Of a DNA stretch of 64,000 nucleotides, positions 24,934 through 45,398 are shown one piece after another. Under the pieces are notes generated by a model. The model did no database searches. It was not told the origin of the DNA and saw nothing but the letters and a program-made list of their open reading frames with translations. Within the stretch, counting starts at the first letter, position 1. Each line of letters opens with the position of its first letter. Source of the DNA: Leptonemataceae bacterium (GTDB lineage: Bacteria; Spirochaetota; Leptospiria; Leptospirales; Leptonemataceae); the NCBI GenBank assembly GCA_965227295.1, contig OZ245742.1, forward strand, positions 4,416,001 to 4,480,000, given 5' to 3'. The translations under genes and the position numbers were made by a program.

Positions 24934-24987
24934 CTTCGAGATTGTCGGCGCAGCACAAGACGCAGGCGGACTTTTTTCGGATTTCAA

Positions 24988-28837: not shown

Positions 28838-31438
28838 TTATCCCGCTTCCACTTCTTCTTTCAACGCCAGTTGCGCCACGGCGAGCAGTGCGATGGGCAC
28901 GCTGTAGGAACTGCACGAGACATACTGCAAACCGGCGGCCCGGCAGAACTCGATGTTCTCCGGATCGGCGCCGTGCTCGCCGCACAGACCGAGCTTAATG
29001 TCCGGCCGCGTGAGCCGACCGCGGATGCTGCTGATCTTGATGAGTTCTTTCACCGGCACGCCGAGGACCTGGAAGGGATTCGCCGCCAGGAGGTCGTACT
29101 CCGTGTAGGCCGGGAAGAACGAGTTCGAATCGTCGCGGCTGAGGCCGTTGGTGGTCTGGGTAAGATCGTTCGTGCCGTAACTGAAAAACTCGGCGTAGCG
29201 CGCCAGCTCGTCCGAAAGCAGGGCCGCCGCAGGCAGCTCCACCATGGTGCCGATCTTGTACTCGACCGAGGTGCCTTCTTTTTCGAAGACGTCCGCCGCG
29301 ATCTCCGCCGCGCCGCGAACATGCTTGCCCTCGATCTTCTTGCCGTTGCGGATCATGTTCAACTCGGACGGATTCATGATCAGCGGGATCATGATTTCGG
29401 GCACGACGTTGTCGTTGCCTTCTTTCTTGAGCTTGCACGCCGCTTCCAGGATGGCGCGGATCTGCATTTCGTAGATTTCCGGATACGTGATGGCCACGCG
29501 GCAACCGCGGTGACCGAGCATGGGATTGAACTCGTGCAGGCGATCCACCTGGGCGTCGATCTCGGTGGTGTCCGGCGTAATGCCTTTGCCTTTCAGATAC
29601 TCAAGATAGTCGTTCATGACCGACTCGGTGCGCGGCAGGAACTCGTGGAGCGGCGCGTCCAGGAGACGGATGGTCACCGGATGCGGGGCCATGGTGCTGA
29701 AAAGATCGTAGAAGTCCTGGCGCTGCAGCGGCTGCAGATCGTCCAGACACTTGATGCGCGTCTCGGTGTCTTTCGCCAGGATCATTTCGCGGAAACGATT
29801 GATGCGGTCGTCGGCAAAAAACATGTGCTCCGTGCGGCACAGGCCGATGCCGTAAGCGCCCATGGTCTTCGCCACTTTGGCGTCGCGCCCCAGGTCGGCG
29901 TTGGCACGGACCACGAAGTCCGGCTTAATGAACTTCTTGATGACCTCGATGAAGTCGGTCAGCCCGTTCGTGTGGATGTCGGGGTTGATCAGCTCCGCTT
30001 TACCGAGAAAGATCGTCGGCTCCTTGTAGACCGGCACATCGAGAGTTACGTAGTCGCCTTCTTTCACGGTGACGCCGTTGAGCTCGAACTGTTTGTCGCC
30101 GTACTTGATGTCCGTGTTCACCACGCTCACCTTACCCATCGAACGCGCGACCACCGGAGCGTGGGAACTGTATCCGCCTTCCACGGAGATGACGCCCTGC
30201 CCGACCTCGATGGCCTTCACGTCTTCGGCATACGAAGCCTCGACACAGAGGACGAGCCGCGTGTCCTCGCCTTTCTGCAACGCGTCCCGATGGGCTTCCA
30301 TGAGCGCGTCCGCCGAAAAGTAGACGCGCCCCACGGCAGCACCGGGAGAACCCGCAAGACCGCCGCTCACGGACGGAATGGACGTGACCGATTCCGGATC
30401 CACGATGGGGTGCAGCAACGTTGCCAGTTGTCCCGGCGGGATCTGCTCAACGAGCCATTTGTCTTCGACGACGTTTTCTTTCATGAGATCCAGGAGCGTA
30501 CGGATGTGCGCCTGGGTGGACTTCTTGTCCTCGGCGGTCTGGTTGATGATCCAGATGTTGCCCTGCTCGACGATGAACTTCACCTCGCGCAGTTCGCGGA
30601 ACTTGTGCTCCAGCTTGCGGCCGATTTCGTTCATCTCTTTCAGGTAGGTCTCGTCCATGCCGTGAATGTCTTCGCCCTTGTTTTCCAGGGTGTAGGCCTT
30701 GCGCACGAAACTGCCCTGTAACTTAGCGTCGCCGGTGATGATGTTCCGCGTGAAGAACATGCCCACCATATCGTTCTCGCTGAGGTTGCCAAAGACCATG
30801 CCCTGCACCATGACGGAGAGGTTGTCGTCTTCGTCCAGTTCCGGGTCGTAATAACGTTTCGCCGCATGTTTGATGACGGCTTCCAGTTGCGCCATGGGAT
30901 CGTCCGGGATCCTGTCCGGGCCGATGAGCGCCTGCATTTCGTCGGCGCACTTCTGCATGTCCTCGGCAGTGCGTTCGTACTTCTTTTCGATCTCGTCGAA
31001 CTTCCCGGGCTCGATGTCGAAGAGTTTGATGCCGGCGGTACGCAAGAGGTAGCAGTACTCGAACCAGGCCGAGGCCTCCCCGATCATCTTCGCGAAGCCG
31101 GGAATGGTGACCGGAGACAGTCCGACGTTGAACACGGTCGGATAGATGGGCAGCACCAGGTTCGCGCTGCACACGACCTTCACGAGCAGCGGATTTTCCG
31201 AATCGCCGTATTTGCGGCCGATGCCTTTTTCGATGTGCGCCAGTCCCGGCGGAGCGATGCTCTTAACATCGAGGTTTTCGATCTTAGAAACAGTGCGGGA
31301 TTCGAATATGAAGCCGGGCACCACCGGCATCTTCAGTTCGGCAAGTTCCAGTGCTCGCTGCCCCCGTTTTCCGGATCGCTCCCAGACGTCCTGGTCCGAG
31401 GTGCAACCTTCCTGGCTGAACATATGAATTTGTGACAT
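28838..31438 (-). CDS. PPDK-family PEP-utilising protein with a degenerate nucleotide-binding domain
   Basis: His domain GGYSSHAPVVAR; PEP domain GLCRTEHMF, IRLLD, GTMVELP, FSYGTNDLTQ, LCGEHG; ATP-grasp motifs altered. Confidence 0.88.
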   Translation of the reverse strand: MSQIHMFSQEGCTSDQDVWERSGKRGQRALELAELKMPVVPGFIFESRTVSKIENLDVKSIAPPGLAHIEKGIGRKYGDSENPLLVKVVCSANLVLPIYPTVFNVGLSPVTIPGFAKMIGEASAWFEYCYLLRTAGIKLFDIEPGKFDEIEKKYERTAEDMQKCADEMQALIGPDRIPDDPMAQLEAVIKHAAKRYYDPELDEDDNLSVMVQGMVFGNLSENDMVGMFFTRNIITGDAKLQGSFVRKAYTLENKGEDIHGMDETYLKEMNEIGRKLEHKFRELREVKFIVEQGNIWIINQTAEDKKSTQAHIRTLLDLMKENVVEDKWLVEQIPPGQLATLLHPIVDPESVTSIPSVSGGLAGSPGAAVGRVYFSADALMEAHRDALQKGEDTRLVLCVEASYAEDVKAIEVGQGVISVEGGYSSHAPVVARSMGKVSVVNTDIKYGDKQFELNGVTVKEGDYVTLDVPVYKEPTIFLGKAELINPDIHTNGLTDFIEVIKKFIKPDFVVRANADLGRDAKVAKTMGAYGIGLCRTEHMFFADDRINRFREMILAKDTETRIKCLDDLQPLQRQDFYDLFSTMAPHPVTIRLLDAPLHEFLPRTESVMNDYLEYLKGKGITPDTTEIDAQVDRLHEFNPMLGHRGCRVAITYPEIYEMQIRAILEAACKLKKEGNDNVVPEIMIPLIMNPSELNMIRNGKKIEGKHVRGAAEIAADVFEKEGTSVEYKIGTMVELPAAALLSDELARYAEFFSYGTNDLTQTTNGLSRDDSNSFFPAYTEYDLLAANPFQVLGVPVKELIKISSIRGRLTRPDIKLGLCGEHGADPENIEFCRAAGLQYVSCSSYSVPIALLAVAQLALKEEVEAG

Positions 31439-31575
31439 GAGTAATATGACTCCGCTGAGATTTGGATGAGCGCCGTCCGGCGCATGTTTGGTCTACGGCT
31501 GCGCGCAACGGCCTTCTGGAACCGGGAACGCACAGGCGAACTATTGAAACGCACACCCGAATTGTAAACGATTTA

Positions 31576-32655
31576 TTAGGCGTTCTTCTGGTCCGTCGGT
31601 GCCACGCCGGGTTCGTAAATGGAGACGTTGTTGCGCCCGCGGTGCTTGCAGATGTAGAGCGCGTCGTCGGCGAGTTTGACGAAGTCGTCCACCTCGTTGA
31701 TGTACTGCGAGTGCAGTGGATAACTGGACACGCCTATGGATATCGTAATGTGGGCGACCTGATCACCAATGGGGATGGGGCGAGACTCGATGTTCTTACG
31801 AATGAGTTCGCCGACTTCCATGCCGCGGTCCGGGCCGGAATCGGGGAGCAACACCACGAACTCTTCGCCTCCGTAGCGGCCGGCAATGTCGTCGCTCCCG
31901 AGCTTGTGTACGGTCTCTTTGATGACGTGAGCGAGTTCTACCAGGGCCTGGTCGCCGCCCTGGTGGCCGTAGGTATTGTTTACGTTGCGAAAGAGATCAA
32001 TATCCGACATAAGCAGCGAGACTGGCTGCCCCGAGCTTCTCGCGCGCCGGAATTCTTCTTCCAGACGGGCCTTGAAGTAATCTTTAATATAGAGACCGGT
32101 GGTACCGTCGACGGTGGCCATGGTATGCAGGCGCGCGTTCTCGATGGCGATCGCCGCCTGGTTCGCCATGGTCTGAAATATTTGCAGGTCGTCCTCGTTG
32201 AAGCGGCGGCCGTCGTTTTTGTTCAGGACCTGGACCGTGCCCAGGCTGCGACGTTTTGCCAGGAGCGGCACGCACATCATCGTTTTAGTAACGAACCCGC
32301 TCTCGGAGTCGGCGCGGCTCGAAAAACGCGGATCGGACGCGGCGTCGGTCACGAGGACCGGCTCGCCCTGCTTCGCCACCCACCCGGCAATGCCCTCGCC
32401 CAGCTTCAGACGGATGTTGCGGATGGCCTCGCTCTTCTCGCCTTTGATGACGTGGAAGTAAAGTTCCTCGGCTTCTTCGTCGACCAGCATGAGACTGGAA
32501 GCCTCGGCGTCGCAGAGTTCCTTCGCCTTTTCCATGAGCGAGTCGAGCACGACGTTAAGGTCGAGGCTCGACGACAGCAGCGCGTTGATTTCGAGAACCT
32601 TGTACAGGCGCTCGTTTTCGTGACGCAGGCGCTCAATGTCGGTCGAATCCGGCAT
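31576..32655 (-). CDS. GAF-GGDEF diguanylate cyclase
   Basis: GAF domain (GEGIAGWVA, DPRF, CVPL); DIDLF..VN..YGH..GD; RYGGEEF. Confidence 0.92.
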   Translation of the reverse strand: MPDSTDIERLRHENERLYKVLEINALLSSSLDLNVVLDSLMEKAKELCDAEASSLMLVDEEAEELYFHVIKGEKSEAIRNIRLKLGEGIAGWVAKQGEPVLVTDAASDPRFSSRADSESGFVTKTMMCVPLLAKRRSLGTVQVLNKNDGRRFNEDDLQIFQTMANQAAIAIENARLHTMATVDGTTGLYIKDYFKARLEEEFRRARSSGQPVSLLMSDIDLFRNVNNTYGHQGGDQALVELAHVIKETVHKLGSDDIAGRYGGEEFVVLLPDSGPDRGMEVGELIRKNIESRPIPIGDQVAHITISIGVSSYPLHSQYINEVDDFVKLADDALYICKHRGRNNVSIYEPGVAPTDQKNA

Positions 32656-32817
32656 GGCTTCAGGTATCCGCACCCGGCGCTCGGGGGCAACTGCTTTTCC
32701 GAACCATACTCCTGACGCAAACGGAAGAACCTGCACGCCCTGCACCGTAAGCAAAAAAATCGGATAAAACGGAAAACTCCTTTAAATTCCCGCTCCACAA
32801 CTCCGTAATTTAAGAAT

Positions 32818-33288
32818 ATGGGCACGTTTGATAAAATGGATAATTTCACGGCGGACAGCCTGCAGAGCTTTCTGGGCCAGCCGCCAAAGCAGGGCATCCT
32901 CGACCGCAATCCCGAGCCGCCGTTTTCCAGCCGCCTCGACTTTGAGGCTTCCAGCAAGCAGAACCCCGACGGACAGATTCCGCGCGCCCGCACCCAGCGC
33001 GCCGAGCGTATCTCCGAGGTCCTCCGCCAGGCCGGCACCCGTCCCGGTCGCCCCGACGCGCAGCCGGACGTCCATGCCCGCGCCGTTCCGCCGACGCCGC
33101 CCGTGCCCGAAGAAATTCCCGAATCAGCCCATCCCCGCGCCCACGACATGATCATCCGCAAGCATTTGTCGGAACTCGTACAACTGCTGATCAGCGAAGG
33201 CCGCTTCGACGATCTGGCACACATTCTGAAGGATCACCGCCGCTTCATCGACGAAATGCTGGCGCTGATTGAAAGAAACAGGCAGTAG
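32818..33288 (+). CDS. Hypothetical protein
   Basis: Fills the intergenic gap; ordered helical C-terminus. Confidence 0.6.
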   Translation: MGTFDKMDNFTADSLQSFLGQPPKQGILDRNPEPPFSSRLDFEASSKQNPDGQIPRARTQRAERISEVLRQAGTRPGRPDAQPDVHARAVPPTPPVPEEIPESAHPRAHDMIIRKHLSELVQLLISEGRFDDLAHILKDHRRFIDEMLALIERNRQ

Positions 33289-33298
33289 ACGTAGACGC

Positions 33299-35959
33299 CT
33301 ACAAACTCCGCTTTTCGATTTCGCGGTCTTTGAGTTCGAGAATCCTTTTCATGGCCGGGGTGACGGCCAGGCGGGCGAGGTTATCACGGAGTTCTTTCGC
33401 CTTCGTCAGGGATTCCGTGCTACCGGACTCCTCGTACTCCAGGAGATTCGTGGAGATTTGCCGGTCCAGGATGTTGATGCGCGCGAAGTCCTTGCGATAG
33501 TGCTGCCGGGCGATTTCCCAGATGTACTCTTTGGGCTCGACGCGAGCGCGACGTCCGTCGGGTAACTCCAGCTCATCGCCCGGGAAGACCCGATCCGGAT
33601 CACGCTTGCTGGCCGCCGTGCGCGTACCGAGTCGTGCAAAACCGTTGCGCCGCGCGAGAATGTTCGCATACGTGAGGACTTCTTCGTCCGCGGCCTCGAT
33701 GTCGTCCTCGCCGGGAACTCGTTGTTCTTCCTGAAAGTTACCCGGCCCGGCCAGTTCCACGGCCCGACGCTCGGCCGCGCTGTCTCCGCGAAGCGACAGC
33801 TCGTTCGTGAAGTCCGAGCTGGCCGATGACGTGGAGATCCAGAGCACGCCGACAACCAGGAGAACCGCAACGACACCGGCGACCGCCAGGGCCGCGGTCC
33901 GGCCGATGCCGGAGTCCGCCAGACGATCCATGATGCCGCCCCCGCCGCGATTGGCCGCCACGACGCGACCGGGATTGTCCCCCGGTAAAAACGACGGCCG
34001 CCCGGCCTTCGCCTTACGAAAGCCTTCGCCGCCGGATTTCGGTCGCGGTTCCCAGCTGCGGCGTTTGGACCAGTGATTGCCGGCGCTACTGCGATCTTCT
34101 TCTTCTTCGCGAGTGTTTACGATACCTATATCGTTGAGGAAACCCTGGAAACGTTTGCGATCTTCCAGGATACGCAGGCGCTCTTCGTAGATGCGCTCCA
34201 GAAATTCGATGCAGTTCCGGAAGCCGGGCGGATCCCCGGCCTTGTCGATGCCCTTTTCCCAGGTGCGGAGTTGCTTCGCGTACGCTTTGGGGTTCGCTTC
34301 CAGATCGGCGTAGGACGGCGGCATGCGAAGTTCCACCGGTTCGTGGTGGGCCTGGCCGACGAATTGCAGCGTCGTCCGCGGGGTAAACAGAATGTGAAAC
34401 TGAGCGTCCTGGGTCCTGAGTGCCAGCCATTCGCTGTAGCGAATGCTGCGCGGATGATAGCGCTTCTGCAGTTTTTCCAGCAGGCTGCGGTGATGTTCGG
34501 TGTATGCCTGGCGATAGACCGGCAGGTGCCGCACGTATTCAAAGAGCCGGCTGAGATTGTAGAGTTCGCGGATGTTTTCTTTCGGCAACGGACGTTCGAT
34601 AAAATCGTTCAGGGCGCGGCTTAAATTCCCTTCCGTAAGATCTAAGCCGAGGTGTAACATTAGAAAATCCCGCACGGTATCGGCCAGGGGCGTCTCCGCG
34701 AAGATGTTCATGACCGTCTCGGCCAGGGCCGCCGGTTCTTCGGCTTCGTGGAAGCGATACTCCGAACTGCGGACCAGGGGCGTGGCCCGCTCGCTCAGAC
34801 GAGCGTTTTGAAAACGTTTGTCGTCGAGATCGCCCTGCATCTGCAGGCAAAGTCGTCCCTGGGCGCCTTCCAGGTCCTGCTTCGAATGGACCACCTGAAA
34901 CTCCAGGTCGTGGGGCGGACGCAGAAAGTCGAAGCTGCGGTTCTGTTTGCCGCCGCCCAGGGGAAACAGGATCTGCACCATGCGATCGGCCTGGGGACCC
35001 ATGCGATACGTAAACACGCCGTGGGAGCCGGTCTTCGATACAAAGTAGCTGATCTGTTTTGCCAGGGGCAATGCGCTGCCGTCGCCGAACGTAAAGAGCT
35101 TTGCGGCGTTGTAGATTTTTTTGAGAACAGGAACGCGCTCTTCATACGCCGCGGCGATGTAGATGCCGGCGTTGCGTTTCTGATGGTTCATGCGACGCAG
35201 GAACTCGCCCAGCCCCGCGGAGAACGGCGTGTACGATACGGCCATCTCCACGCGTTCGTGATCGACTTCCTGTTCGAACAGCGCGTAGTGCGGGTCGATG
35301 CACGGATTCAGAAAAAGGCCGCGGCCGTCGAAGTTCCAGTAGATGCACGGACGGGTCGGCGTCGGCGAGTACTCCGGGCCGAAGTAGATGAAACCTTTGC
35401 CGTCCTCGCACTTCTTGTGCCGACGGCGCATGGCCCGGGCCATGAGATCGTACTCTTTGTCGATGTCGATGCGGCCGCGCATAGCCGCCTGATGATCGTA
35501 AACCTTCGAAGTGCCGACGTTTACGACGGCATTGCCGGTTTCAAAGAACGTCGTAGTGACGCGGTTCTTTTCGTGGGCCAGGCGTACGGGTTTGTACGGC
35601 ACCGCTTCCACCGGACGGTTGCCCTCCTCCAGTTCCCGCATGCCCGTGAAAGCGTAGATCTGCTGAACGCGATCCTTGCTGCCGACGTAGCGAATGCTTT
35701 CCTCGCCCTCGTCGATCGTCGCCTGGAGCCAGGCCGTTTCGAGGCCGATGTTGATGGGATCGTTTTCTACAAGCAGAACGTTTTCGATATGCCGGAGCAC
35801 GCCGCCGGGAACGGACTTGCCCGCACCGACGCGCATGAACGGCCGCATGTCCTCACTGTGGAGGCCGGTGTAGATCACGCTCGTATCGCGGTCGATCTGA
35901 AAAACGCGGTCACTGCCGCGCAGTTCTGCGATTACCTGTTGCTTTTTATTCGCCGCCAT
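33299..35959 (-). CDS. Large membrane-anchored hypothetical protein with C-terminal LysM-like motifs
   Basis: Single TM segment (AALAVAGVVAVLLVVGVLWI); DPDRVFPGDELELP and VEPKEYIWEIARQHY resemble LysM halves. Confidence 0.75.
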   Translation of the reverse strand: MAANKKQQVIAELRGSDRVFQIDRDTSVIYTGLHSEDMRPFMRVGAGKSVPGGVLRHIENVLLVENDPINIGLETAWLQATIDEGEESIRYVGSKDRVQQIYAFTGMRELEEGNRPVEAVPYKPVRLAHEKNRVTTTFFETGNAVVNVGTSKVYDHQAAMRGRIDIDKEYDLMARAMRRRHKKCEDGKGFIYFGPEYSPTPTRPCIYWNFDGRGLFLNPCIDPHYALFEQEVDHERVEMAVSYTPFSAGLGEFLRRMNHQKRNAGIYIAAAYEERVPVLKKIYNAAKLFTFGDGSALPLAKQISYFVSKTGSHGVFTYRMGPQADRMVQILFPLGGGKQNRSFDFLRPPHDLEFQVVHSKQDLEGAQGRLCLQMQGDLDDKRFQNARLSERATPLVRSSEYRFHEAEEPAALAETVMNIFAETPLADTVRDFLMLHLGLDLTEGNLSRALNDFIERPLPKENIRELYNLSRLFEYVRHLPVYRQAYTEHHRSLLEKLQKRYHPRSIRYSEWLALRTQDAQFHILFTPRTTLQFVGQAHHEPVELRMPPSYADLEANPKAYAKQLRTWEKGIDKAGDPPGFRNCIEFLERIYEERLRILEDRKRFQGFLNDIGIVNTREEEEDRSSAGNHWSKRRSWEPRPKSGGEGFRKAKAGRPSFLPGDNPGRVVAANRGGGGIMDRLADSGIGRTAALAVAGVVAVLLVVGVLWISTSSASSDFTNELSLRGDSAAERRAVELAGPGNFQEEQRVPGEDDIEAADEEVLTYANILARRNGFARLGTRTAASKRDPDRVFPGDELELPDGRRARVEPKEYIWEIARQHYRKDFARINILDRQISTNLLEYEESGSTESLTKAKELRDNLARLAVTPAMKRILELKDREIEKRSL

Positions 35960-37208
35960 CGTTGTACTCGAAGATGTAATTGCCTAACCGGAACGAATCA
36001 CCGCGGGAAATGAGCCCGTCTTCTTTTTGTTTGATGTACTTGAAGTGGGCCTCGTCCCTGCCCGCGGGCTTCAGAATCGACTCACCCTTCACTTTCTTCG
36101 CCTTGAGGTCCACGTTCTTCGGGAGTCCCATCTGACGAATTTTCAAATCCGCACCCAGCTTGCTGCCGATGGACATCTTGCTCTTGTCCAGCTTGTCCAA
36201 ATCGAAGGAAGACTTCACCGGCTGGCCGACGTCGGCTTCATAGTAAGTGAAAGCGCCGGCCACCTTGTGACGATTCATAAACCAGCGGATGAGTATGATC
36301 AGGACACCGAGGATGAACAAGACCAACAGGACGTTCCGAATGATCGGAGCCCAGGCCCCGTAGCGCGTCTTCCACTGGACCTCGTCGACATCCTCGCTGA
36401 CCTCGGTGAGGCCGATTTCGTCGGCGGCCGCGGCTGACTCGTCTTGCGCTTCGCCGTCGTCGGCCGTGGCAGCGGCAGCGGAATCGTCCGCGGTCTCAGC
36501 TTCAGTCGCGGCAGCGTCGCCGCTCTCTGAATCGCTGGCCGGGGCCGCTTGTTTCGGTTCCGCCGATTTCTTTTTGGCCGGCTCCACGGTCTTCACTTCC
36601 GGCGAGAGTTCCTCGAGTTTCGCTTCGAGGGCCGGGTCCTTGAGTTTACCCAGGCTCACGTAGTAGATGTATGCGTTTTGCACCGGTCGGTCCCGGGTTT
36701 CGGACGGGTCTTTCAGGTCTTCGATGTTAAGTTTTTGGTCCTTTAACTCAGCCGGCGGATCGTCGCGACCGTCGGACATGATTACCACAAAGACGTTGCG
36801 GTCCTGGCTTTCCAGGCGCTCCACTTCTTCGCGGACGGACCCGACCATGCCTTTCATGAACGTATGCCGGCCCTTCGCGGCCAGGGTCTCCACGGCGCTT
36901 ACGACCCGGGCTCGATCCTCGTCGCCGTTGATTTTGTAGGAGCCGACCCGGTAGGTCTCCGTATCGAAGTTCATGAGCGTGATGGTGTCGCCGTCGTCCA
37001 CGGAACGCAGGAAGGCATCCATGCTCTGCTTGACCTTGTCGATTTTGCTCGCGTCGCCTCCCGGTCGATAGGCCATGGAACCGGAGGTATCGATCACGAG
37101 AACATAATCTTTACCGCCGCCGAAAAGGCCGCAGCCCGTCGCGAACGAGAGCGCCAGGGCGGCGCTCAGCAGGAGTCGCGAAAAATTCTTAAGTGCAATG
37201 ATTCTCAT
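35946..37208 (-). CDS. vWA-domain lipoprotein with a C-terminal TM helix and FHA-like tail
   Basis: Lipobox FATGC; MIDAS DTSGS..T..SDG; TM helix; IGSKLGADLKI..ISRGDSFRLGNY. Confidence 0.8.
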   Translation of the reverse strand: MRIIALKNFSRLLLSAALALSFATGCGLFGGGKDYVLVIDTSGSMAYRPGGDASKIDKVKQSMDAFLRSVDDGDTITLMNFDTETYRVGSYKINGDEDRARVVSAVETLAAKGRHTFMKGMVGSVREEVERLESQDRNVFVVIMSDGRDDPPAELKDQKLNIEDLKDPSETRDRPVQNAYIYYVSLGKLKDPALEAKLEELSPEVKTVEPAKKKSAEPKQAAPASDSESGDAAATEAETADDSAAAATADDGEAQDESAAAADEIGLTEVSEDVDEVQWKTRYGAWAPIIRNVLLVLFILGVLIILIRWFMNRHKVAGAFTYYEADVGQPVKSSFDLDKLDKSKMSIGSKLGADLKIRQMGLPKNVDLKAKKVKGESILKPAGRDEAHFKYIKQKEDGLISRGDSFRLGNYIFEYNDGGE

Positions 37209-37313
37209 AGGAATGCTCGGTACCGTTTTCGAATTCAGGCCAAACTCACGAGACCACAAAAGAACGATGCGACGTAATGCAGCGAAGGAGACCAGGGCCG
37301 ACGACCGACCTGG

Positions 37314-38033
37314 TCAATACTCGTTGTATTCCTTGTTGTTCTTAATGTAGTCGCGTAAGTTTAAATTCAAAGCGCCGTCGCGGTCAAGATATTCCATGAG
37401 TAAAATGTAGAACCACATCATGGTATCCGGGCCGGTTTCCACGACCTTATACCCGCCGGCGATTTCCCAGTCCTTGATGATCAGGCCCTGGCCGAGAACG
37501 CAAATCAAGTCCGTCTCCATGTTGACCGGGATTTCTTTTTCCTGAGAGATTTCGATCAGGTTCTGCTTGTGAAAGAGGAGCGAATGCTCCGAATCGTAGG
37601 CGAAGAGCAGCGAGTACATCGGAACGACATCCAGTTCGCTGACTTCGCGCTCACCGGAGTGCAGGACCTTAAGCGCCCGGGTGAGGCTCGCGTGGGTGGC
37701 CAGGTTCGCCGCGGTCAGTCCGGCTTCGATCGTAATGAACGCGTTCAACGCGTCCGCGAGGACATAACCGCCTGTAAGGTCCAGGAACTTCGCGCACCAC
37801 TTGCGATAGATCAACACGTCGCAGTCGCGATTCAGCAGGTGCTTTTTGTTTCGCACCTTGCCCGTGGCCAGCGAGATTTCCGGCGGCAGGTGATCCTTCA
37901 GGAAGGTATAGAACTCCTGAAAAAGGTTCAGGTCTTTCTTTTTCTCGGGGAGTTTGACTCCCCGTTTCCCCAGCTTTTTAGCCAGGGCCTTTTCCAGGTC
38001 GGTGCTTTGGTTGGCGAAGTACTCCGAGAACAT
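37314..38033 (-). CDS. Hypothetical protein, possibly DUF6602-like
   Basis: FLKDHLP..GKV..DCDVLIY pattern. Confidence 0.65.
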   Translation of the reverse strand: MFSEYFANQSTDLEKALAKKLGKRGVKLPEKKKDLNLFQEFYTFLKDHLPPEISLATGKVRNKKHLLNRDCDVLIYRKWCAKFLDLTGGYVLADALNAFITIEAGLTAANLATHASLTRALKVLHSGEREVSELDVVPMYSLLFAYDSEHSLLFHKQNLIEISQEKEIPVNMETDLICVLGQGLIIKDWEIAGGYKVVETGPDTMMWFYILLMEYLDRDGALNLNLRDYIKNNKEYNEY

Positions 38034-38068
38034 TCTATTTTATGATCGGCGACTTTTCCCCTCGAACG

Positions 38069-39049
38069 TCAGAAAAGATTCAGGACTTTGTTTACGTCGT
38101 GCTTCAGAAAGCTCTCGAAGCGCGAGGAAGCGCCCTCGTGCAGGTATTTCTGTAGCTTGCTGACGCCCTTGATCTCCACGCCGGCCACCTGGAAGAAGAT
38201 GAGACCGCCGTGTTTCACCTTACCCCACTTAAACAGGGTGTTCAGGTCCTGAATGAGTTCGCCCTCGTGGTAGACGATGACCTGTGAAGTATTGTAGCGG
38301 GTCTCGTAGGACTCAATGATGTTCTTCCAGGCCTCCACGTTGCCGTTGTGGAAGAGTTCGTTGGTCACCTGCACCGAGTACTTCGGCGTCATGCGCTTCT
38401 TGCCGGCCGGCGCGGCCTGCTGGGCCGGACGCGCCGCGGGCTGCGGAGCGGCGGGCTTCGGGGCCGGCGCGGGAGCCGACTGCTGGCGCGGCGGCGGAGG
38501 GGGCGGCGGAGGCGGAGCCGCACGTTCGAACTCCGGATCGCTTTCCGGCGTCTTGCCGTCGAGCATGGCGAAGAAAGCCTCAAGGGCCTTTTCGGCCGTT
38601 TCCCGTTTGTTGTTCTTCGCCCGGGCATAGACGATCATGAGTTCGTTGACCTTCACGCCGTGCAGCGAGTCCCAGTGTTCCTGCTTCGCGGGATTTACCA
38701 GGTTCACGCCGGTGGTCGGGTGATAGTAAACCACGACCAGGTCGATACCGTTCCACTTCTTAAATTGCTCGGCGATCTTGCCGAGCGCCGCGTCGTCGAC
38801 GCTGGCCTTCAGGTTGGTGGAACGATACGGAAGATCGAGTTTGTTGATGAGGATGACGCTGAGGATCGGCGGGATCTGTTCGCGCTGGATGACGTTGTTC
38901 TCCAGCAGGTCGTTCAGCAGATCGGCGAGGTTTCCGCCTTTGCTTGCGGCTTCCACCAGGTTTGTAACGTTCACAATGTGACGCAACGTCTGGTTGAACG
39001 CCTCGCGGGTTCCGAGATTCGAAAGTTCTTTTCCGGTGCTGACTGCCAT
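38069..39049 (-). CDS. CfpA-adjacent protein: N-terminal domain, Pro/Ala linker, C-terminal HPr-like domain (inferred)
   Basis: RBS GAGGAG; residues 220-308 align by eye with HPr, including His234. Confidence 0.8.
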   Translation of the reverse strand: MAVSTGKELSNLGTREAFNQTLRHIVNVTNLVEAASKGGNLADLLNDLLENNVIQREQIPPILSVILINKLDLPYRSTNLKASVDDAALGKIAEQFKKWNGIDLVVVYYHPTTGVNLVNPAKQEHWDSLHGVKVNELMIVYARAKNNKRETAEKALEAFFAMLDGKTPESDPEFERAAPPPPPPPPPRQQSAPAPAPKPAAPQPAARPAQQAAPAGKKRMTPKYSVQVTNELFHNGNVEAWKNIIESYETRYNTSQVIVYHEGELIQDLNTLFKWGKVKHGGLIFFQVAGVEIKGVSKLQKYLHEGASSRFESFLKHDVNKVLNLF

Positions 39050-39122
39050 GACTCCTCGCTTGCTCCCGGGGCCCGGGGCTGACCTATTCAGCCCCGGAGC
39101 ACGGGGAACTCAACGAAAAAAC

Positions 39123-39153
39123 AAAAAACCCGCGATCCGAAGACCGCGGGTTT
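39123..39153 (-). terminator. Intrinsic terminator after cfpA
   Basis: Minus strand AAACCCGCGGTC-TTCG-GATCGCGGGTTTTTT, with a cUUCGg loop. Confidence 0.8.
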
Positions 39154-39187
39154 GCGGGGCCGTCGCCGGCCCCTTCGAAAACTCTTC

Positions 39188-41260
39188 TCAGAGTTCTTTC
39201 AAGCCCATCTCTTTGAGTTTGTCCTCGTAAGATTTGGGCGTTACATCGGCCGAGCCTGCGACTCCGCCGGCTCCCGCCGGGGCGTCGCCGCCTCCTCCGC
39301 CACCGGACGGGGGTGCGGGCGGCGGTGGCGGAGGTGCTCCACCACCGTCGTCGTCCGGTCCCTGGTTTTGGTTCGCGGAATCGGCCGTGCTATACGCCAG
39401 AGACGCTGCGGTCTCTTTCATCTCGTCGCTGCCGAAGTTCTGATCGATATCCGCACGCATCGTAGAACGACGGCGCTTGAACGAAGCGAAGGCCGCGTCC
39501 GCGAAGCCCTGAGAGACGCCGTGGAGGAATTCGTTCAGAACGTTCGCCATGGCTTTCATCATGTATTGCTTGCGCTTGGTCGTGGTGAGGTCCACGTCCA
39601 GGAGCAGGCCGGGCTGCAGTTGATGCGGGTTGATTTCGTAGATGAAGGAGTTGAACTCTTTTTCGAGGAGATTCAACCGCTCATCGAGAACGACGCGTTC
39701 TACCGGGTTCTGGTAGCCGAACATTTCCTGGAGCATGCTCTGGAGGTAGTTCAGTTTATCGCCGACGTTCTTGATTTCGACCTGATACGTGCGATTGTTC
39801 TTCTCGACGAAGGTGCTCGCCGGATCGCGGAACTGGAGTTCGTTCCAGTGCAGTTCGTCCGGATCCTGATTGATGGCCTTGCGATCCTTCACCCACTGGC
39901 GCGGCATGAGCTTTTCGGTTAGGTCCTCGAAGTCGCCCATCTTCTTGCTGAGGCCGAGCCACTTGGACTTCCGCTTTTCGTACAGCGTATGCACGACGTC
40001 CCAGACAGCGTCCACTTCCCGGAGGAATGCGGCGATGCGGTTGTCGTAGATGCGCTTGAGTTCGCGGATCTGGTTTTGATCGAAGTAAACCAGGCGGATG
40101 GCGTAGCGCTCGTCCGGAAGCTGCGTCTCGTCCAGATCTTCGTACTCACGGATGATACACTCGCGGGCGTTCTTGTTGTTATCGCAAAACTGATAACCGA
40201 GGCGCGAGGTATCAAGGATCGAGGTCAGCGTGTTCACGGCGGTGTTGAAGCCGCGGTTCCGAATGTTCTCGTTGTCGATGATCTTCTTGATCTGCTCCCG
40301 CATGTTCAGCGGGTCGTAGTCTTCTTGATCGATCTCTGCGCGCAGGCCGTCGATTTTATCGAGGAACTTCTTGCCGAGGATGGTGTAACGACGGGAGTTC
40401 GGGTCCGAGACGTTGTCGTCGGTGAACTTCTCGACGAGCTTGATCTTCTCGAACATGATCTCGGAGTCGCTGAGCTCGGCACGACCGGAGTCCACCATCT
40501 CTTCTTTGAGCTTTTCGATCTCGCGATCGATGAGTTCGGAAATGTGCTGGGAGAGCTGCTCTTTCAGCAGGTGCTCCACGGTTACCTGATAGTGGAAGAT
40601 CCGGGAAATGAGCTCGGAGTCCAGGATGTTGATGGAGAGTTTGATGTCCGAAACGGTCTTCGGTTTGAAGGCGTTGTCCTTGAACGCGCACTTTACGATG
40701 GAGTAAGCATTCTCACCGCGAACGAAGGCGCCGATGTCCGTTTTTTGACGGAGGATGGCGTTCGTTTCGTTCTCCAGGTCGTTCATACCCCGCTGGATAT
40801 GGCCCTGAAGGTGACCGTACATGTTCACGACGGACTTCTCTAATTCACCCGTGTTGAACTTGTCGGAGCCGCCGATTTTATCCAGCAGTTCGACGATTTC
40901 TTTCGGAGTGTACCGGGCGAGGCTTTTGACTTCTTCTTTGTCGACGAAGTCGCGGACCTTTTTGACCATCTCATCTTCCACCGTTATCGCGTAACGGTTG
41001 AACATGTTCACGTATGCCTGGTTGACGTAGTTGTAGAGCTTGTCTTCGATGCTCGCCATTACGTCGACGTCTTTGACGACTTCCGGCGGCAACTTCGTCT
41101 GCGTGTACTCGGAAATGTAGCGCGCGGTCTCGTCGATGATGCGCTTCGCTTCCGCGGGTTTGTCTCGACCCTCCCACACCAATGAGGTACGCGATGCGAC
41201 CGCACTGGGAAGAACAGGATCGATTTTATTCGGGCTTTTCGGGAATTGCCCCACTGCCAT
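39188..41260 (-). CDS. cfpA: Cytoplasmic filament protein CfpA family
   Basis: 690 aa; PSAVASR, NTGELEKSVVNMYGHLQGHIQRG, ENIRNRGFNTAVN, QPGLLLDVDLT, AAFASFKRRRST match my recollection of the spirochaete CfpA family. Confidence 0.82.
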   Translation of the reverse strand: MAVGQFPKSPNKIDPVLPSAVASRTSLVWEGRDKPAEAKRIIDETARYISEYTQTKLPPEVVKDVDVMASIEDKLYNYVNQAYVNMFNRYAITVEDEMVKKVRDFVDKEEVKSLARYTPKEIVELLDKIGGSDKFNTGELEKSVVNMYGHLQGHIQRGMNDLENETNAILRQKTDIGAFVRGENAYSIVKCAFKDNAFKPKTVSDIKLSINILDSELISRIFHYQVTVEHLLKEQLSQHISELIDREIEKLKEEMVDSGRAELSDSEIMFEKIKLVEKFTDDNVSDPNSRRYTILGKKFLDKIDGLRAEIDQEDYDPLNMREQIKKIIDNENIRNRGFNTAVNTLTSILDTSRLGYQFCDNNKNARECIIREYEDLDETQLPDERYAIRLVYFDQNQIRELKRIYDNRIAAFLREVDAVWDVVHTLYEKRKSKWLGLSKKMGDFEDLTEKLMPRQWVKDRKAINQDPDELHWNELQFRDPASTFVEKNNRTYQVEIKNVGDKLNYLQSMLQEMFGYQNPVERVVLDERLNLLEKEFNSFIYEINPHQLQPGLLLDVDLTTTKRKQYMMKAMANVLNEFLHGVSQGFADAAFASFKRRRSTMRADIDQNFGSDEMKETAASLAYSTADSANQNQGPDDDGGGAPPPPPPAPPSGGGGGGDAPAGAGGVAGSADVTPKSYEDKLKEMGLKEL

Positions 41261-41542: not shown

Positions 41543-42724
41543 TTACAAGAGGCGCCGTAGCAGTTCCGTAAATGAATTGGCAACCATCGCATGGCCCTGA
41601 CGGTTTAGATGGCGGTCTTTTTCATAAAAGAGCGCGACCGGCGCGGCCTGCAACGGGGGCAAAAGGTCGACGAACACAAGACTTTCGCGTTCCAGTAAAG
41701 CCGTAAAGTCACGGCGTACGCGCTCCTCCATCAATGGGGCCGCATCATCCAGCGCGAAGAAGGCTTCCATGCGCGCGAACTCCGGTTTTTTCCGACTGCG
41801 CTCCGCCTGTACTCCGGTCGGCAGGAGCAAAAAAACGGGACGTACGTTCCGACTGCGAGTTTCACGTACGACTTCTTTCAATAAGAAAGCAGCTCCGGCC
41901 GATGCCGCGGCGAAGGCGTCGTCCGCACGGAGGATGTGCGCCTGCAAATAGCCCTGGGCGAGGGCACCGGAGGATGTACGAAAGATCCGTCGCCGGACTT
42001 CTTCGCGTGTTTCGATGGGATCCAGTAACCCGAAGGCTCTGCGAAATCCGTGCACGACGTGCAGACCACGCACCGGGCGCGGCCCTTCGACCAGCGCAAA
42101 GGGCTGCACCACCCGCATGGCATCCAGGGCCGCGCGATTCCCGGCGGGATCTTCGGAAAAACCGGCGCCGTAGATTTCGGCGTAGTCGTTCCCGGTATAA
42201 AAGACAAAGACCGCGATATCCGGACGGAGTTCGGCGTGCTTCATAAACAAACGCAGTTGATGATGGAGGGCCGTTACGCCGACGCCGGCGTTGATCAGCT
42301 CCACGTCCAGGCCGGAGTCCGTTAACATTCGCTCCGCAACATTTACAAACGAATCCCGGTTGCGAACGTAACCGTCCGTATGCGAATCTCCGAAGACCAT
42401 CACCCGGTGGCGGTGAGTCGAAGCGAGCGGGGTCGGCTCATCCTCCCGAAAACCGCGGTTGTTCGTGCGGAACGTAAGCACGCCCTCCTCCGCTTCGGGC
42501 CAGGGCAGCACACGCTCGAAGTTCGGTGTATGGACGTGCCCGGCGAAGGCATCCGGCTGAAAGTAATCCCGGGTGAACCGGGCGTTTTCTTCGAGGCCGG
42601 GGTTGTAGTTTGCGAGAAATCGGAGCGTGAGTTCCGCGACTGCGAGGCCGACGAGCGCCATGAGGACGAACGCGATCGCGTAGAAGGCGATGAGTTTGCG
42701 GGGGCTGAGGGTTGGTTTGTTCAC
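41543..42724 (-). CDS. SGNH/GDSL hydrolase family (AlgX/AlgJ-like) membrane-anchored protein
   Basis: FGDSHT, NAGV, TGND, DRHLN; GTG start at 42724 chosen because it lies outside the repeat. Confidence 0.85.
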   Translation of the reverse strand: MNKPTLSPRKLIAFYAIAFVLMALVGLAVAELTLRFLANYNPGLEENARFTRDYFQPDAFAGHVHTPNFERVLPWPEAEEGVLTFRTNNRGFREDEPTPLASTHRHRVMVFGDSHTDGYVRNRDSFVNVAERMLTDSGLDVELINAGVGVTALHHQLRLFMKHAELRPDIAVFVFYTGNDYAEIYGAGFSEDPAGNRAALDAMRVVQPFALVEGPRPVRGLHVVHGFRRAFGLLDPIETREEVRRRIFRTSSGALAQGYLQAHILRADDAFAAASAGAAFLLKEVVRETRSRNVRPVFLLLPTGVQAERSRKKPEFARMEAFFALDDAAPLMEERVRRDFTALLERESLVFVDLLPPLQAAPVALFYEKDRHLNRQGHAMVANSFTELLRRLL

Positions 42725-42737
42725 GGGAAGCAGATTG

Positions 42738-42849
42738 GACTCCGAGGATCGAGGTACCGAGAACAAAGGATTGAGGGCGATCTCATCCGAACGCCATACG
42801 GGGACGACACGCCGTCCCCAAAACCCTCGGTACCTCGGCCCTCGGAGTC
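42738..42849. repeat. MITE/REP-like element with 24-bp imperfect terminal inverted repeats, family C
   Basis: GACTCCGAGGATCGAGGTACCGAG (42738-42761) / CTCGGTACCTCGGCCCTCGGAGTC (42826-42849). Confidence 0.85.
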
Positions 42850-42857
42850 AATCCATC

Positions 42858-45398
42858 TTACAAATCATCCTCGGAGAAGATATCCCCGGGGCGTTTGATG
42901 ACTTCTTCCTCGCCCGAGATTCCTCCCGGACCGAAGAGTTCTTCCAGGTTTTCGCCGGCATCCTTTGGTTGCGTGCCTGGATGAAAGAGTTCCACCCGGC
43001 GGCCGCTGCAACCGGGGCCGGGCAACATGCCCGTATTTTCGCAGATCTCCACGCGCACCAGGTTCGCTTCGGGGAATTCGAAGCGCGTGCCCTCCTCCGT
43101 GCGATGGGCCTTTTGCATGTAGCGACCCCAGACCGGCGCGGCCAGACCGCCGCCCGTCGCGCCGGCGCCGAGAGACATGGGCCGGTCGTGGCCGATGTAA
43201 ACCGCGGTCACCAGGCGCGGCGTGTAGCCGACGAACCAGGCGTTGGAATTTCGGTTGGTGGTTCCGGTCTTGCCGGCGACCGGCCATCCGCCCAGGCGCG
43301 CGGCCTTGCCCGTGCCCCGCTCAACGACGTCACGCAAAAGCGAAGTCATGATCTCGGCGGTGCCGGCCTTGAGGATACGGCGGCGCTCCACTTCGGGGCC
43401 GTTCCGGTCGCGCACGTCATAGAGGATGTTGCCCTCGGTGTCGGTGATGTGCGTGATGACGTACGGTTCCACGGCATAGCCGCCGGAAGCGAACGTGGCA
43501 TAGGCCCGCGCCATTTCGAACGGACTCACCGCGTGACTGCCCAGGGCCACCGCCGCTTCACGCGGCAGCGATCCTGCTTTCATGCGCAGGAGTTTTTCCA
43601 CGGTGGGATTGATCATGTCCGGGCCCACGCGTTCGTAGACGCGCACGGCGACGGCGTTCTTCGAAAGGGCGAGTCCGCGGCGCAGGCGGATCAAACCTTC
43701 GTAGCTGCGTGAGTAGTTCTCCGGCGAGTACTCGGAAAGATCGGCGCTCACGAAGGTCACCGGCGAATCGTCGACCAGCGTCGCCGCGGTGAGGGTGCGT
43801 TCGCCGGCCGGTTGATCCGCGGTGGAATCGATGGCCGAGGCATAGACGAGCGGCTTAAACGCGCTGCCGGGCTGACGACTGGCCTGCACGAAGCGCAACT
43901 GCTGGTTCGAAGATTTGAAACCGGATCCGCCGATGACCGCGGTAATGGCCCCGTTCTCCGGACGCAGGGTGATCAGCGCTCCTTCCACGGCCTGGGATTC
44001 TTCAATCACACGAAAGCCCTCGGCCGTGTGATGTTCCAGCGCGTTCGGCGTGTTCCAGCTTCCGGCCAGATGACCGAGCAAAAACAGTTCCGGCACCATG
44101 TCTTCTTCGAAGGCGCGCAGAAACTTCCGTTCTTCCCGGCTGATCTTGATCTTGAAGTCCGGCTGCTCGAACAAAAGGAAGCTCATGCGCTGGAGTTCGC
44201 TGTACTCGTCATCGAAGGCGTCGAAGAACCGAAACGGCGCGCGCCGACGGCGGGCGGTTTGTTCGAGGAGATACGGCGGCAGGGTTTCTTCGGCCGCGGT
44301 CTGGTGGGCGTGGTTGATCGTCGTGTAGATGCGATAGCCGCCGCTGTAGAGTCCGCGGCGAATCGCGGACGGCAGGTCCCCGCGGTCCGTAAGTTCGTCG
44401 ATCTGGCGGAGGATGTACGCCGTGGCGTAGGGATGCAGATTCAGGCGCTGGTGAAAGGCGTTGTCGTGGGGCGAACGATCCAGGACGGCGTAGAAATCCT
44501 GCTCGAGCTTGCGAAACTCCCGCTCCGCCTCGCTTACGGTGAGGTCGCCGTTTTCGACGAGTTTCTGAAAGGTAACACGAACCTTGCGCCGCGATTCCGA
44601 GGGATTCTTGAACGGCGACAGAGACTCGGGCCGCGTGGTGAGCGAAGAGATGACCGCCGCTTCGCCCCACTCCAGTTCATGGAACGGCTTCTCAAAGTAG
44701 AACTGTGACGCCGCTTCGACACCGTGGGCGCCGTGGCCCAGGTAGACCATGTTCAGATAGATTTCCATGATCTGGCGTTTGCTGTAGCGCATTTCGATGA
44801 GCAGCGACAAAAAGGCCTCACGCAGCTTGCGCACGATGTTGCGTTCGTTCGTAAGAAAACGCAGTCGCGCCACCTGCTGCGTGATTGTGGATGCGCCTTC
44901 CCGCACCGAACCCGCGAGCACATTGACCAGGGCCGCACGCAAAATGCCCTCGAAGTCGATGCCGGGATGCGAGAGGAACTTGTTGTCCTCGGTGGCAATG
45001 AAACAGCGGACGATCTTTGAGTTCATGCCCCGCGGTCCGTCGCCCTCTTCCAGTTCAATGACCCGCCGGCTCTTGCGCAGCAGCTCCGAGATCTCCATGG
45101 CCTCGCCGTCTTCGCCGACACCGTAGATGATCGACGGCTGATTGTAGCCGGAGTCGGTGTAAACCCGGTAAAAATCCGCGGGCGTGCCGCCGATCAACGC
45201 CAGGCACAAACCGCCGAGTCCCAGAGCCACCAGCGTCGCGCGCCGCAGGGCCCTGCCGTCGCTCTCGCCCCACCAGCGCGCGAATCTCAGGTTCAGCCCG
45301 TAGTAGAACGTGCGCGCGAACAACCCGGTCCGTCCCGGCGGCGTAAAGATGCTCTGCCGGTATGGATTCTCGCCTTCGGTTAACTTGTCGCTGCTCAT
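42858..45398 (-). CDS. Class A penicillin-binding protein (PBP1A)
   Basis: Transglycosylase motifs EDNKFLSHPG, GASTITQQ, RKLRE, YLN; transpeptidase motifs SAFK, SKN, KTGT. Confidence 0.95.
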   Translation of the reverse strand: MSSDKLTEGENPYRQSIFTPPGRTGLFARTFYYGLNLRFARWWGESDGRALRRATLVALGLGGLCLALIGGTPADFYRVYTDSGYNQPSIIYGVGEDGEAMEISELLRKSRRVIELEEGDGPRGMNSKIVRCFIATEDNKFLSHPGIDFEGILRAALVNVLAGSVREGASTITQQVARLRFLTNERNIVRKLREAFLSLLIEMRYSKRQIMEIYLNMVYLGHGAHGVEAASQFYFEKPFHELEWGEAAVISSLTTRPESLSPFKNPSESRRKVRVTFQKLVENGDLTVSEAEREFRKLEQDFYAVLDRSPHDNAFHQRLNLHPYATAYILRQIDELTDRGDLPSAIRRGLYSGGYRIYTTINHAHQTAAEETLPPYLLEQTARRRRAPFRFFDAFDDEYSELQRMSFLLFEQPDFKIKISREERKFLRAFEEDMVPELFLLGHLAGSWNTPNALEHHTAEGFRVIEESQAVEGALITLRPENGAITAVIGGSGFKSSNQQLRFVQASRQPGSAFKPLVYASAIDSTADQPAGERTLTAATLVDDSPVTFVSADLSEYSPENYSRSYEGLIRLRRGLALSKNAVAVRVYERVGPDMINPTVEKLLRMKAGSLPREAAVALGSHAVSPFEMARAYATFASGGYAVEPYVITHITDTEGNILYDVRDRNGPEVERRRILKAGTAEIMTSLLRDVVERGTGKAARLGGWPVAGKTGTTNRNSNAWFVGYTPRLVTAVYIGHDRPMSLGAGATGGGLAAPVWGRYMQKAHRTEEGTRFEFPEANLVRVEICENTGMLPGPGCSGRRVELFHPGTQPKDAGENLEELFGPGGISGEEEVIKRPGDIFSEDDL

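Follow-up and report, generated by a model that had tools for sequence, protein, structure and literature searches.

A conserved cfpA gene module of spirochaetes encodes a pyruvate, phosphate dikinase paralog and a protein with a predicted HPr-type fold: a candidate phosphorelay

In a 64,000-nucleotide stretch of DNA from a Leptonemataceae bacterium (GenBank assembly GCA_965227295.1, contig OZ245742.1, positions 4,416,001 to 4,480,000; the whole stretch is called the window, and positions are counted from its first letter), the gene for the cytoplasmic filament protein CfpA belongs to a gene trio that is conserved among spirochaetes. The second member encodes a 326-aa protein of the TP0747 family and the third a paralog of pyruvate, phosphate dikinase (PPDK) that retains the catalytic histidine and the phosphoenolpyruvate (PEP) site, has a changed nucleotide site and falls in a clade separate from the canonical enzymes. 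The best-supported reading is that the module works like Enzyme I and HPr of the phosphotransferase system (PTS) while being a member of neither family. Taken whole, a PEP-driven relay from the PPDK paralog to an HPr-fold carrier, tied to CfpA, is the best explanation that we can offer for the locus, and we give it a probability of roughly 40%.

The PPDK-like protein retains the PEP site and has a remodelled nucleotide site

The PPDK-like protein aligns collinearly with the solved PPDK of C. symbiosum (2dik_A; 531.6 bits, residues 23-860 to 19-871), and three domains can be delimited approximately: a remodelled ATP-grasp domain (residues 1-340), a phospho-His swivel domain (341-505) and an intact PEP/pyruvate TIM barrel (506-860). 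The N-terminal 340 residues align with PPDK's ATP-grasp domain, and PEP-utilizers_C scores 228 bits. The protein did not reach the cut-off of the curated PPDK model TIGR01828 (EC 2.7.9.1; 666.3 bits, cut-off 843.45) or of Pfam PPDK_N (21.9 bits, cut-off 27), nor that of the Enzyme I model TIGR01417 (101.7 bits, cut-off 341.7), to which the match was limited to residues 635-861.

The PEP/pyruvate site of PPDK is formed by R561, R617, E745, N768, D769 and C831 (C. symbiosum numbering). All six are kept, as R535, R591, E734, N757, D758 and C819, together with the catalytic swivel histidine (H455, here H426, codon at 30161-30163), and the retained positions are invariant or nearly so in 61 sequences of the clade. 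The ATP-grasp domain shows replacements at five positions (K22 to R25, R92 to V89, D321 to E285, E323 to K287 and R337 to A302) and a replaced glycine-rich loop with a one-residue deletion. Catalytic roles of the PPDK ATP-grasp residues R92, D321, E323, Q335 and R337 were reportedly described by Ye et al. in 2001. The role of K22 as the essential lysine of the ATP-grasp is given in the available part of PMC4844700.

The same pattern was found in all copies linked to cfpA. We aligned 58 rows, made up of the window and 57 PPDK-like ORFs (open reading frames) of at least 430 aa from the cfpA loci described below; the fragments in two loci (L061 and L066) were left out. In 58/58 rows K22 is replaced by R, R92 by V or A and E323 by K or R, R337 is never R, and H455 is kept. 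Among 79 canonical representatives, by comparison, K22 and R92 are present in 79/79, E323 is E or D in 79/79 and D321 is kept in 61/79. The MAFFT and HMMER alignments differ by one column near Q335/R337; R337 is lost in both, and the Q335 column was not used. The protein had been called a PPDK paralog lacking ATP-grasp residues in a preliminary description of this DNA, a view that the five replaced positions and the score below the TIGR01828 cut-off bear out; the numbering given there for H426, and for H234 of the TP0747-family protein, also agrees with our alignments. The fragment in L066 (12498-13664 of that locus) is an ORF of just 388 aa, 1487 nt downstream of the TP0747-family gene, and may be a broken gene or an error in the assembly of a metagenome-assembled genome (MAG).

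To place the cfpA-linked copies among their relatives, we used the best 150 of 19168 matches (E<=1e-3) from a search of 1.84 billion representatives. A FastTree phylogeny of 149 rows (132 of those 150, with lengths of 780-1050, plus the window and 16 locus sequences) split 43 rows, including all the cfpA-linked ones, from the other 106 with a support of 100. In order to avoid circularity, an IQ-TREE phylogeny was built from the columns of the His and PEP domains only, with 98 rows: all 40 classed as degenerate, 30 classed as partial and 28 sampled randomly from the 79 canonical ones. The identical 43 rows made up exactly one side of a branch, with an SH-aLRT (Shimodaira-Hasegawa-like approximate likelihood ratio test) of 100. 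The cfpA-linked PPDK-like proteins are thus a separate paralog lineage. Identity in the swivel domain is 50% within the clade and 28% to canonical PPDKs; a domain that diverged and was then held fits a changed partner. The N-domain is 35% identical within the clade, and the ratio of N-domain to PEP-domain identity is 0.66 there, against 0.87 in canonical PPDKs. Deeper representatives of the clade (P0373-P0391) carry yet other residues at the former ATP site, and in one of them (P0377) Y replaces the catalytic histidine.

The former ATP site has also acquired basic residues: R25, K87 and R284 are each present in 29/29 rows and position 287 is K or R in 26/29, positions at which the canonical residues are K, S, Q and E, respectively. 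Given the new invariant basic residues of the remodelled pocket, the main rival is an enzyme that has changed and remains metabolic. Its N-terminal pocket would use another phosphoryl partner (Pi/PPi only, or another nucleotide) and carry out no Mg-ATP chemistry; the neighbourhood of cfpA would reflect co-expression, and the TP0747-family protein would be a regulator of the enzyme or an accessory of the filament. In its favour, Q300 and many glycines are kept beside the new basic residues, K87 lies on the same strand as the lost R92, two positions before it, and could point likewise, and the N-domain still has 35% identity across the clade. TP0746, the Treponema pallidum protein encoded next to the TP0747 gene, is also treated as a glycolytic Ppdk in the available parts of PMC10013896 and PMC8525777, and some database names for PPDK-like relatives read 'pyruvate, phosphate dikinase'. 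Set against this are the replacement of all of K22, R92, E323 and D321 with the changed glycine-rich loop, the failure on the curated PPDK model (666 vs 843) and the name that NCBI gives to the Leptonema illini orthologue, just 'putative PEP-binding protein'. A rewired enzyme would, moreover, leave unexplained an invariant histidine on a predicted HPr fold whose gene comes right before that of the enzyme, at a median distance of 48.5 nt. We consider it unlikely, if the strongest of the alternatives.

The TP0747-family protein is predicted to contain an HPr-type fold

The 326-aa protein carries PF27497 (TP_0747_N, as the family is named in the protein atlas) in its N-domain (residues 1-165), as do all 120 relatives among the precomputed matches listed. 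A disordered, Pro-rich linker (166-217, approximately) joins this to a C-terminal domain (218-326) that is predicted to have an HPr-type fold with an invariant histidine. We modelled the protein with AlphaFold2, both whole (pLDDT, the predicted local distance difference test, 87.4; 74-sequence alignment) and as the C-domain alone (pLDDT 91.5). The modelled domain consists of a strand (224-227), a helix (235-251), two strands (256-261 and 264-266), a helix (271-274), a strand (283-290) and a helix (296-306); this b-a-b-b-a-b-a topology is the order found in HPr, and would form an open-faced sandwich. When the C-domain model was submitted to Foldseek, ranks 1-17 were all HPr or Crh (probability 0.84-1.00, template modelling (TM) score by target 0.48-0.63, best E 4.8e-3); the model of the whole protein matched the HPr chains 7x7h_B and 9s8b_D with TM scores by target of 0.76-0.77 and a root-mean-square deviation of 2.5 A.

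H234 (codon at 38348-38350) is present in 67/67 aligned sequences and in the model immediately precedes helix 1, a position at which it might be the counterpart of HPr His15. The invariant residues of the family concentrate in the segments of the His loop/helix 1 and of helix 2; in HPr, these regions make up the partner-binding face.

Sequence searches gave a different picture. Residues 215-326 matched no Pfam family at E<=10, the whole protein had no HPr match in Pfam or NCBIfam, and phmmer and profile searches of the PDB with the 326-aa protein returned no HPr chain. The other matches of the protein, which we set aside, were of low complexity and fell on the Pro-rich linker, apart from a weak one to NusA (E 0.1). 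In the protein atlas the C-domain found its own family plus unnamed clusters below 0.9 and nothing else, and the N-domain found no usable match. A motif scan for HPr genes across the fetched loci and the window produced one spurious match, an 87-aa ORF without HPr features. The label 'HPr-like' that the protein had been given therefore holds for its predicted fold, on the evidence of the two models and of Foldseek, and does not hold for membership of the sequence family.

We then folded the full PPDK-like protein together with residues 215-326 of the TP0747-family protein, using separate alignments. The complex scored 0.48 (runs 0.48, 0.54 and 0.46) against 0.01 for the best of three controls; at least 87% of contacts agreed between the runs, and the partner had a pLDDT of 81 or more. 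In calibration, 116 of 157 solved complexes and 2 of 215 mismatched pairs attained the score mark, just 18 of the solved complexes and both mismatched pairs attaining it at 0.60 or below; since we used alignments of our own, these counts hold only roughly. As solved complexes of Enzyme I with HPr exist, the pass may partly reflect likeness to them. The complex prediction that had been put forward as a check of this pairing accordingly came out as weak support.

The three genes are linked across spirochaetes

Judged by its sequence, the identity of cfpA is certain: its product scores 876.2 bits against NF040882 (cut-off 500), with residues 6-611 of 690 covering positions 2-605 of a 605-position model, and 2744 relatives at E<=1e-3 were found among 8000 scored candidates. 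A scan of species genomes for cfpA loci matched 518 stretches, of which 465 were confirmed and the best 80 fetched; 71 of these had at least 1200 nt downstream of cfpA and were taken as assessable. Most of the 80 loci come from related MAGs, and the counts that follow are not counts of independent events.

The TP0747-family gene lies immediately downstream of cfpA in 66/71 assessable loci, a linkage far beyond chance, and a PPDK-like gene is found downstream of cfpA in 59/80 loci. In 37 loci, which represent the more distant lineages, the PPDK-like gene comes directly after the TP0747-family gene; a median of 48.5 nt separates the two, and no more than 100 nt in 32/38 loci. The PPDK-like gene is farther off in 22 loci, those of the clade of the window, where genes for a 239-aa protein, a vWA protein, an 886-aa protein, a small reverse ORF and a GAF-GGDEF protein stand in between. 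Elsewhere, in 19 distant loci, cfpA is immediately preceded by the 239-aa and vWA genes, which share its strand, and a TPR protein gene comes before this pair in both loci examined (L034 and L044). The gene order is still kept where CfpA identity has fallen to 53%, with differing flanks outside the module, and the loci carry the labels of two classes of Spirochaetota, Leptospiria and Spirochaetia. Synteny had been proposed as a check, and a lack of linkage outside this genome as grounds for giving up the idea; with linkage in genomes labelled as two classes, both points came out in its favour.

Published annotations extend the linkage to Treponema. In the available part of PMC3914990, joint repression is described for T. 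denticola TDE0842 (cfpA), TDE0843 (hypothetical) and TDE0844 ('PPDK, putative'), and the available parts of PMC8525777 and PMC10013896 give cfpA as TP0748 and Ppdk as TP0746 in T. pallidum, in line with the preliminary description, which had placed a ppdK-annotated gene close to cfpA in that species. By synteny, TP0746 and TDE0844 would belong to the remodelled clade. A search of the literature outside subscription journals found no paper on the function of TP0747/TDE0843 or on any connection between cfpA and PPDK, HPr or the PTS; the available parts of PMC1665464 and PMC2405797 contain nothing on treponemal PPDK or cfpA.

A possible relay and the evidence that weighs on it

cfpA, the TP0747-family gene and the PPDK-paralog gene constitute a conserved spirochaetal module, into which, in the lineage of the window, a vWA anchor block and a GAF-GGDEF gene are inserted between the second and third members. 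The results suggest the following mechanism. Because its catalytic histidine and PEP-site residues are intact, the paralog would keep the PEP half-reaction (PEP + His426 -> pyruvate + His426~P), and because its nucleotide-site residues are replaced it would lack the canonical ATP/AMP-PPi half-reaction. The phosphoryl group might then pass from His426 to the invariant His234 on the HPr-fold C-domain, a step to which the complex prediction lends its weak in-silico support. The N-domain and the flexible Pro-rich linker might anchor the carrier at the CfpA ribbon or at membrane partners, as the gene neighbourhood suggests, and the PEP/pyruvate state might thereby modulate the filament system. We infer from these features that H426 would be autophosphorylated from PEP, that the phosphoryl group would be transferred to H234 and that CfpA would be affected; the relay from PEP to H426 to H234 is plausible but unproven. 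That carbon status is linked to filament assembly is something that we infer purely from gene neighbourhood.

Several observations weigh against this relay. At the level of the carrier, no Foldseek match reached E<=1e-3 with either model, so that the likeness to HPr is one of fold and of moderate strength; HPr itself has a small fold, and sequence-level similarity to HPr was zero in the Pfam, NCBIfam and PDB searches. The His motif of HPr continues with A-R-P, unlike the N-G-N that follows H234. On the side of the kinase, PPDK lacks a counterpart to the helical subdomain by which Enzyme I binds HPr, the complex score lies in the weak band and came with no interface model, and the ATP pocket is rebuilt and not decayed, and could still bind a phosphate compound. 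As for the filament, the TP0747-family and PPDK-like proteins are linked to CfpA by gene neighbourhood alone, and a strong terminator-like hairpin, in the 138-nt gap between cfpA and the TP0747-family gene, parts cfpA from the genes downstream, which suggests that cfpA can be expressed apart from them. Its 12-pair stem is one of the two longest in our scan, which found 24 terminator-like sites in total against 18.3 +/- 4.0 in shuffles, a class not enriched. Lastly, in five loci (L030, L032, L034, L035 and L036) cfpA has neither the TP0747-family gene nor the PPDK-like gene in its flanks. CfpA of these loci is 63-65% identical to that of the window and the upstream 239-aa and vWA genes are kept; in L034, the single one that was scanned, genes for an ion channel and for a cyclic nucleotide (cNMP)-binding protein follow cfpA. 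Three further loci (L007, L013 and L028) have 10 kb downstream of cfpA without a PPDK-like gene, which in L013 and L028 we judge, from an orthologue on a contig of matching length, to be retained and unlinked, more than 10 kb away on the same contig.

The exceptions and the hairpin also bear on the idea that the neighbourhood has no shared function at all, with inheritance and operon inertia keeping the three genes together and the filament unrelated to the enzyme. One lineage that has cfpA alone, a terminator-like hairpin after cfpA, five other genes between the second and third members in the clade of the window and a sample made up mostly of related MAGs all speak for it. It accounts poorly for a gene order that holds to 53% CfpA identity, under the labels of two classes and between differing outer flanks, for the joint absence of the TP0747-family and PPDK-like genes in the five exceptional loci, and for the co-regulation of the T. 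denticola trio in the available part of PMC3914990; we find this reading improbable. Slightly more improbable still is a non-catalytic pseudoenzyme, a scaffold of the filament system with a structural or PEP-sensing role, for which the HPr-fold domain would be a binding module only: the changed nucleotide site, the relatively faster evolution of the N-domain (0.66 vs 0.87) and the further losses in some deep members of the clade, P0377 among them, speak for it, but H426 is kept in 58/58 cfpA-linked copies, the PEP-site residues that were checked are kept or nearly invariant, and H234 is invariant, and the retention of H426 with the PEP site is the pattern to be expected of a catalytic half-reaction that was kept.

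For the question of what the CfpA filament does and how it is controlled, the locus offers a concrete and testable pair of partners. If the PEP-driven relay extended to the CfpA spirochaetes as a whole, among which synteny would place T. denticola and T. pallidum (TP0746-TP0748), these organisms would have an Enzyme-I-independent PEP:protein phosphotransferase, composed of a PPDK paralog and a cryptic HPr-fold TP0747 carrier, that controls the filament or is scaffolded by it. We regard this general claim as doubtful. Were it true, the 'PPDK' with which treponemal glycolysis is drawn, as its last and ATP-forming step, would not be that enzyme, and the PEP-utilising swivel-His machinery would have a third use, beside the metabolic dikinases and the PTS, with a candidate carrier that is invisible to sequence searches. 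The lack of canonical nucleotide-site residues in 58/58 cfpA-linked copies already calls into question the annotation of TP0746 as a glycolytic Ppdk that the available parts of PMC10013896 and PMC8525777 adopt.

Layout of the locus and other genes of the window

The ORF list and the Pfam and NCBIfam searches place seven minus-strand genes and one plus-strand ORF in the region 28838-41260, with the coordinates and order that the preliminary description had given for all eight (Table 1). The window has a G+C content of about 60%, and its closest relatives are uncultured Leptospirales-type spirochaetes.

Table 1. Features of the cfpA region, in window coordinates
Feature	Position	Strand	Basis
cfpA, cytoplasmic filament protein CfpA, 690 aa	39188..41260	-	NCBIfam NF040882
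Terminator-like hairpin	39126..39153	-	Consensus scan; 12-bp stem, 7 G-C pairs, T-rich tail
TP0747-family protein, 326 aa	38069..39049	-	PF27497 TP_0747_N and AlphaFold2 model
Conserved hypothetical protein, 239 aa	37314..38033	-	Relatives paired with vWA gene
vWA-domain protein, 437 aa	35946..37259	-	VWA_2 E 8.7e-10, VWA E 7e-8 (Pfam)
886-aa protein, no known family	33299..35959	-	No Pfam or NCBIfam family
156-aa ORF	32818..33288	+	No Pfam or NCBIfam family
GAF-GGDEF diguanylate cyclase, 392 aa	31576..32754	-	GGDEF 132.3 bits, GAF 84.6 bits (Pfam)
PPDK paralog, 866 aa	28838..31438	-	PDB alignment, Pfam, NCBIfam, trees

For the 239-aa protein the best Pfam match, DUF6602, is below threshold (21 bits, cut-off 27). 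Its relatives, detected by tblastn, are neighbours of a vWA gene; the pair is on the downstream side of cfpA in the close clade and on the upstream side in the distant loci. The sequence of the vWA protein has a lipobox-like N-terminus ('FATGC'), an acidic linker, one later transmembrane helix and a C-terminal tail of about 100 aa with no assigned fold; the true start of the gene is probably the ATG at 37208. It had been described as a vWA/FHA-like lipoprotein: the vWA domain and the lipobox-like N-terminus were found again, and the FHA domain was not, the last 110 aa having no FHA match in Pfam at E<=10. Similarly, of the transmembrane and LysM-like features attributed to the 886-aa protein the former stands, as one transmembrane segment near residue 700-720 between a large N-terminal part and a C-terminal part of about 165 aa, and the latter falls, since the C-terminus had no LysM match in Pfam at E<=10. 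Relatives of this protein come after the vWA gene in the close clade (tblastn).

The 156-aa ORF, on the strand opposite to cfpA, keeps its position and orientation in 10 loci of close relatives (tblastn; L001, L002, L005, L008, L009, L015, L016, L018, L020 and L023). The GAF-GGDEF protein contains a GGEEF motif and lacks the RxxD I-site, as read from its sequence, and in 21 close-clade loci its gene immediately precedes the PPDK-like one (tblastn). Its GAF domain (residues 52-212) matches the one at the N-terminus of PtsP-type Enzyme I (model NF008283, E 4.7e-16), and also that of NifA, which would put a PtsP-like sensor domain directly upstream of the PEP-utilising paralog in those 21 loci. 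Profile scans detected no gene for a PTS component, HPr kinase or pyruvate kinase anywhere in the window.

Upstream of cfpA lies a minus-strand gene (42858-45398) for a class A penicillin-binding protein with transglycosylase and transpeptidase domains; it lies upstream of cfpA in 20/80 loci, all of the close clade (tblastn; among L001-L029). A GDSL-like gene between the two (41543-42766) was found in 0/80 loci.

Elsewhere in the window, the minus strand at 19907-21720 has matches to FlgI (P-ring, 311 bits) and, more weakly, to FlgH (L-ring, 42 bits), in the company of genes for FlgA, a rod protein and a rod-binding protein. An L-ring gene is, to our knowledge, unusual in spirochaetes outside Leptospira-like lineages, and its presence fits an affiliation of the Leptospirales type. 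The minus strand at 23680-24987, between the flagellar rod/ring genes and a flagellin gene, encodes a protein of 435 aa that has an N6/N4 DNA methylase domain. On the plus strand, 9557-10960 encodes a 467-aa DnaA-like protein with comparatively low domain scores (Bac_DnaA 60 bits, a partial match), which could be the replication initiator or a paralog of it; the cumulative GC skew of the window shows no clear turn at this gene. Rfam and tRNA scans found no RNA genes in the window.

Comparison with known systems

In the PTS, the phosphoryl group travels from PEP to His189 of Enzyme I and on to His15 of HPr. The module shares with this pair a homologous PEP-binding TIM barrel and swivelling phospho-His domain (the match to TIGR01417 at residues 635-861), and a partner that has a predicted HPr-type fold and an invariant histidine before helix 1 and whose gene lies side by side with that of the kinase. 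It differs from Enzyme I in its PPDK-type architecture, with a 340-residue N-domain derived from an ATP-grasp and no helical HPr-binding subdomain, and from HPr in that the TP0747-family protein has no sequence similarity to it, an extra N-domain of 165 residues, a Pro-rich linker and an H-N-G-N motif. Unlike a PTS locus, moreover, the 64-kb window has no sugar permease genes.

With canonical PPDK (C. symbiosum, maize) the PPDK-like protein has in common a full-length collinear alignment and the conserved catalytic histidine and PEP/pyruvate site, whereas the replacement of K22, R92, D321, E323 and R337, the changed glycine-rich loop, the separate clade and the score below the TIGR01828 cut-off set it apart. 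The closest parallels to the locus itself are T. pallidum TP0748-TP0747-TP0746 and T. denticola TDE0842-TDE0843-TDE0844, which show the same order of cfpA, a hypothetical gene and 'PPDK' (PMC3914990, PMC10013896 and PMC8525777, in their available parts) and from whose TP_0747 the family of the 326-aa protein takes its name; the window is unlike them in having five extra genes between the second and third members.

A precedent for the reuse of the module shared by PPDK and PEP synthase (PEPS) with a new phosphoryl acceptor is provided by rifampin phosphotransferase (RPH), in which an HPr-like subdomain is also reported, according to the available part of PMC4844700. RPH keeps the ATP-grasp, whose Lys22 is essential, and replaces the PEP domain, while the PPDK-like protein of the cfpA module does the reverse.

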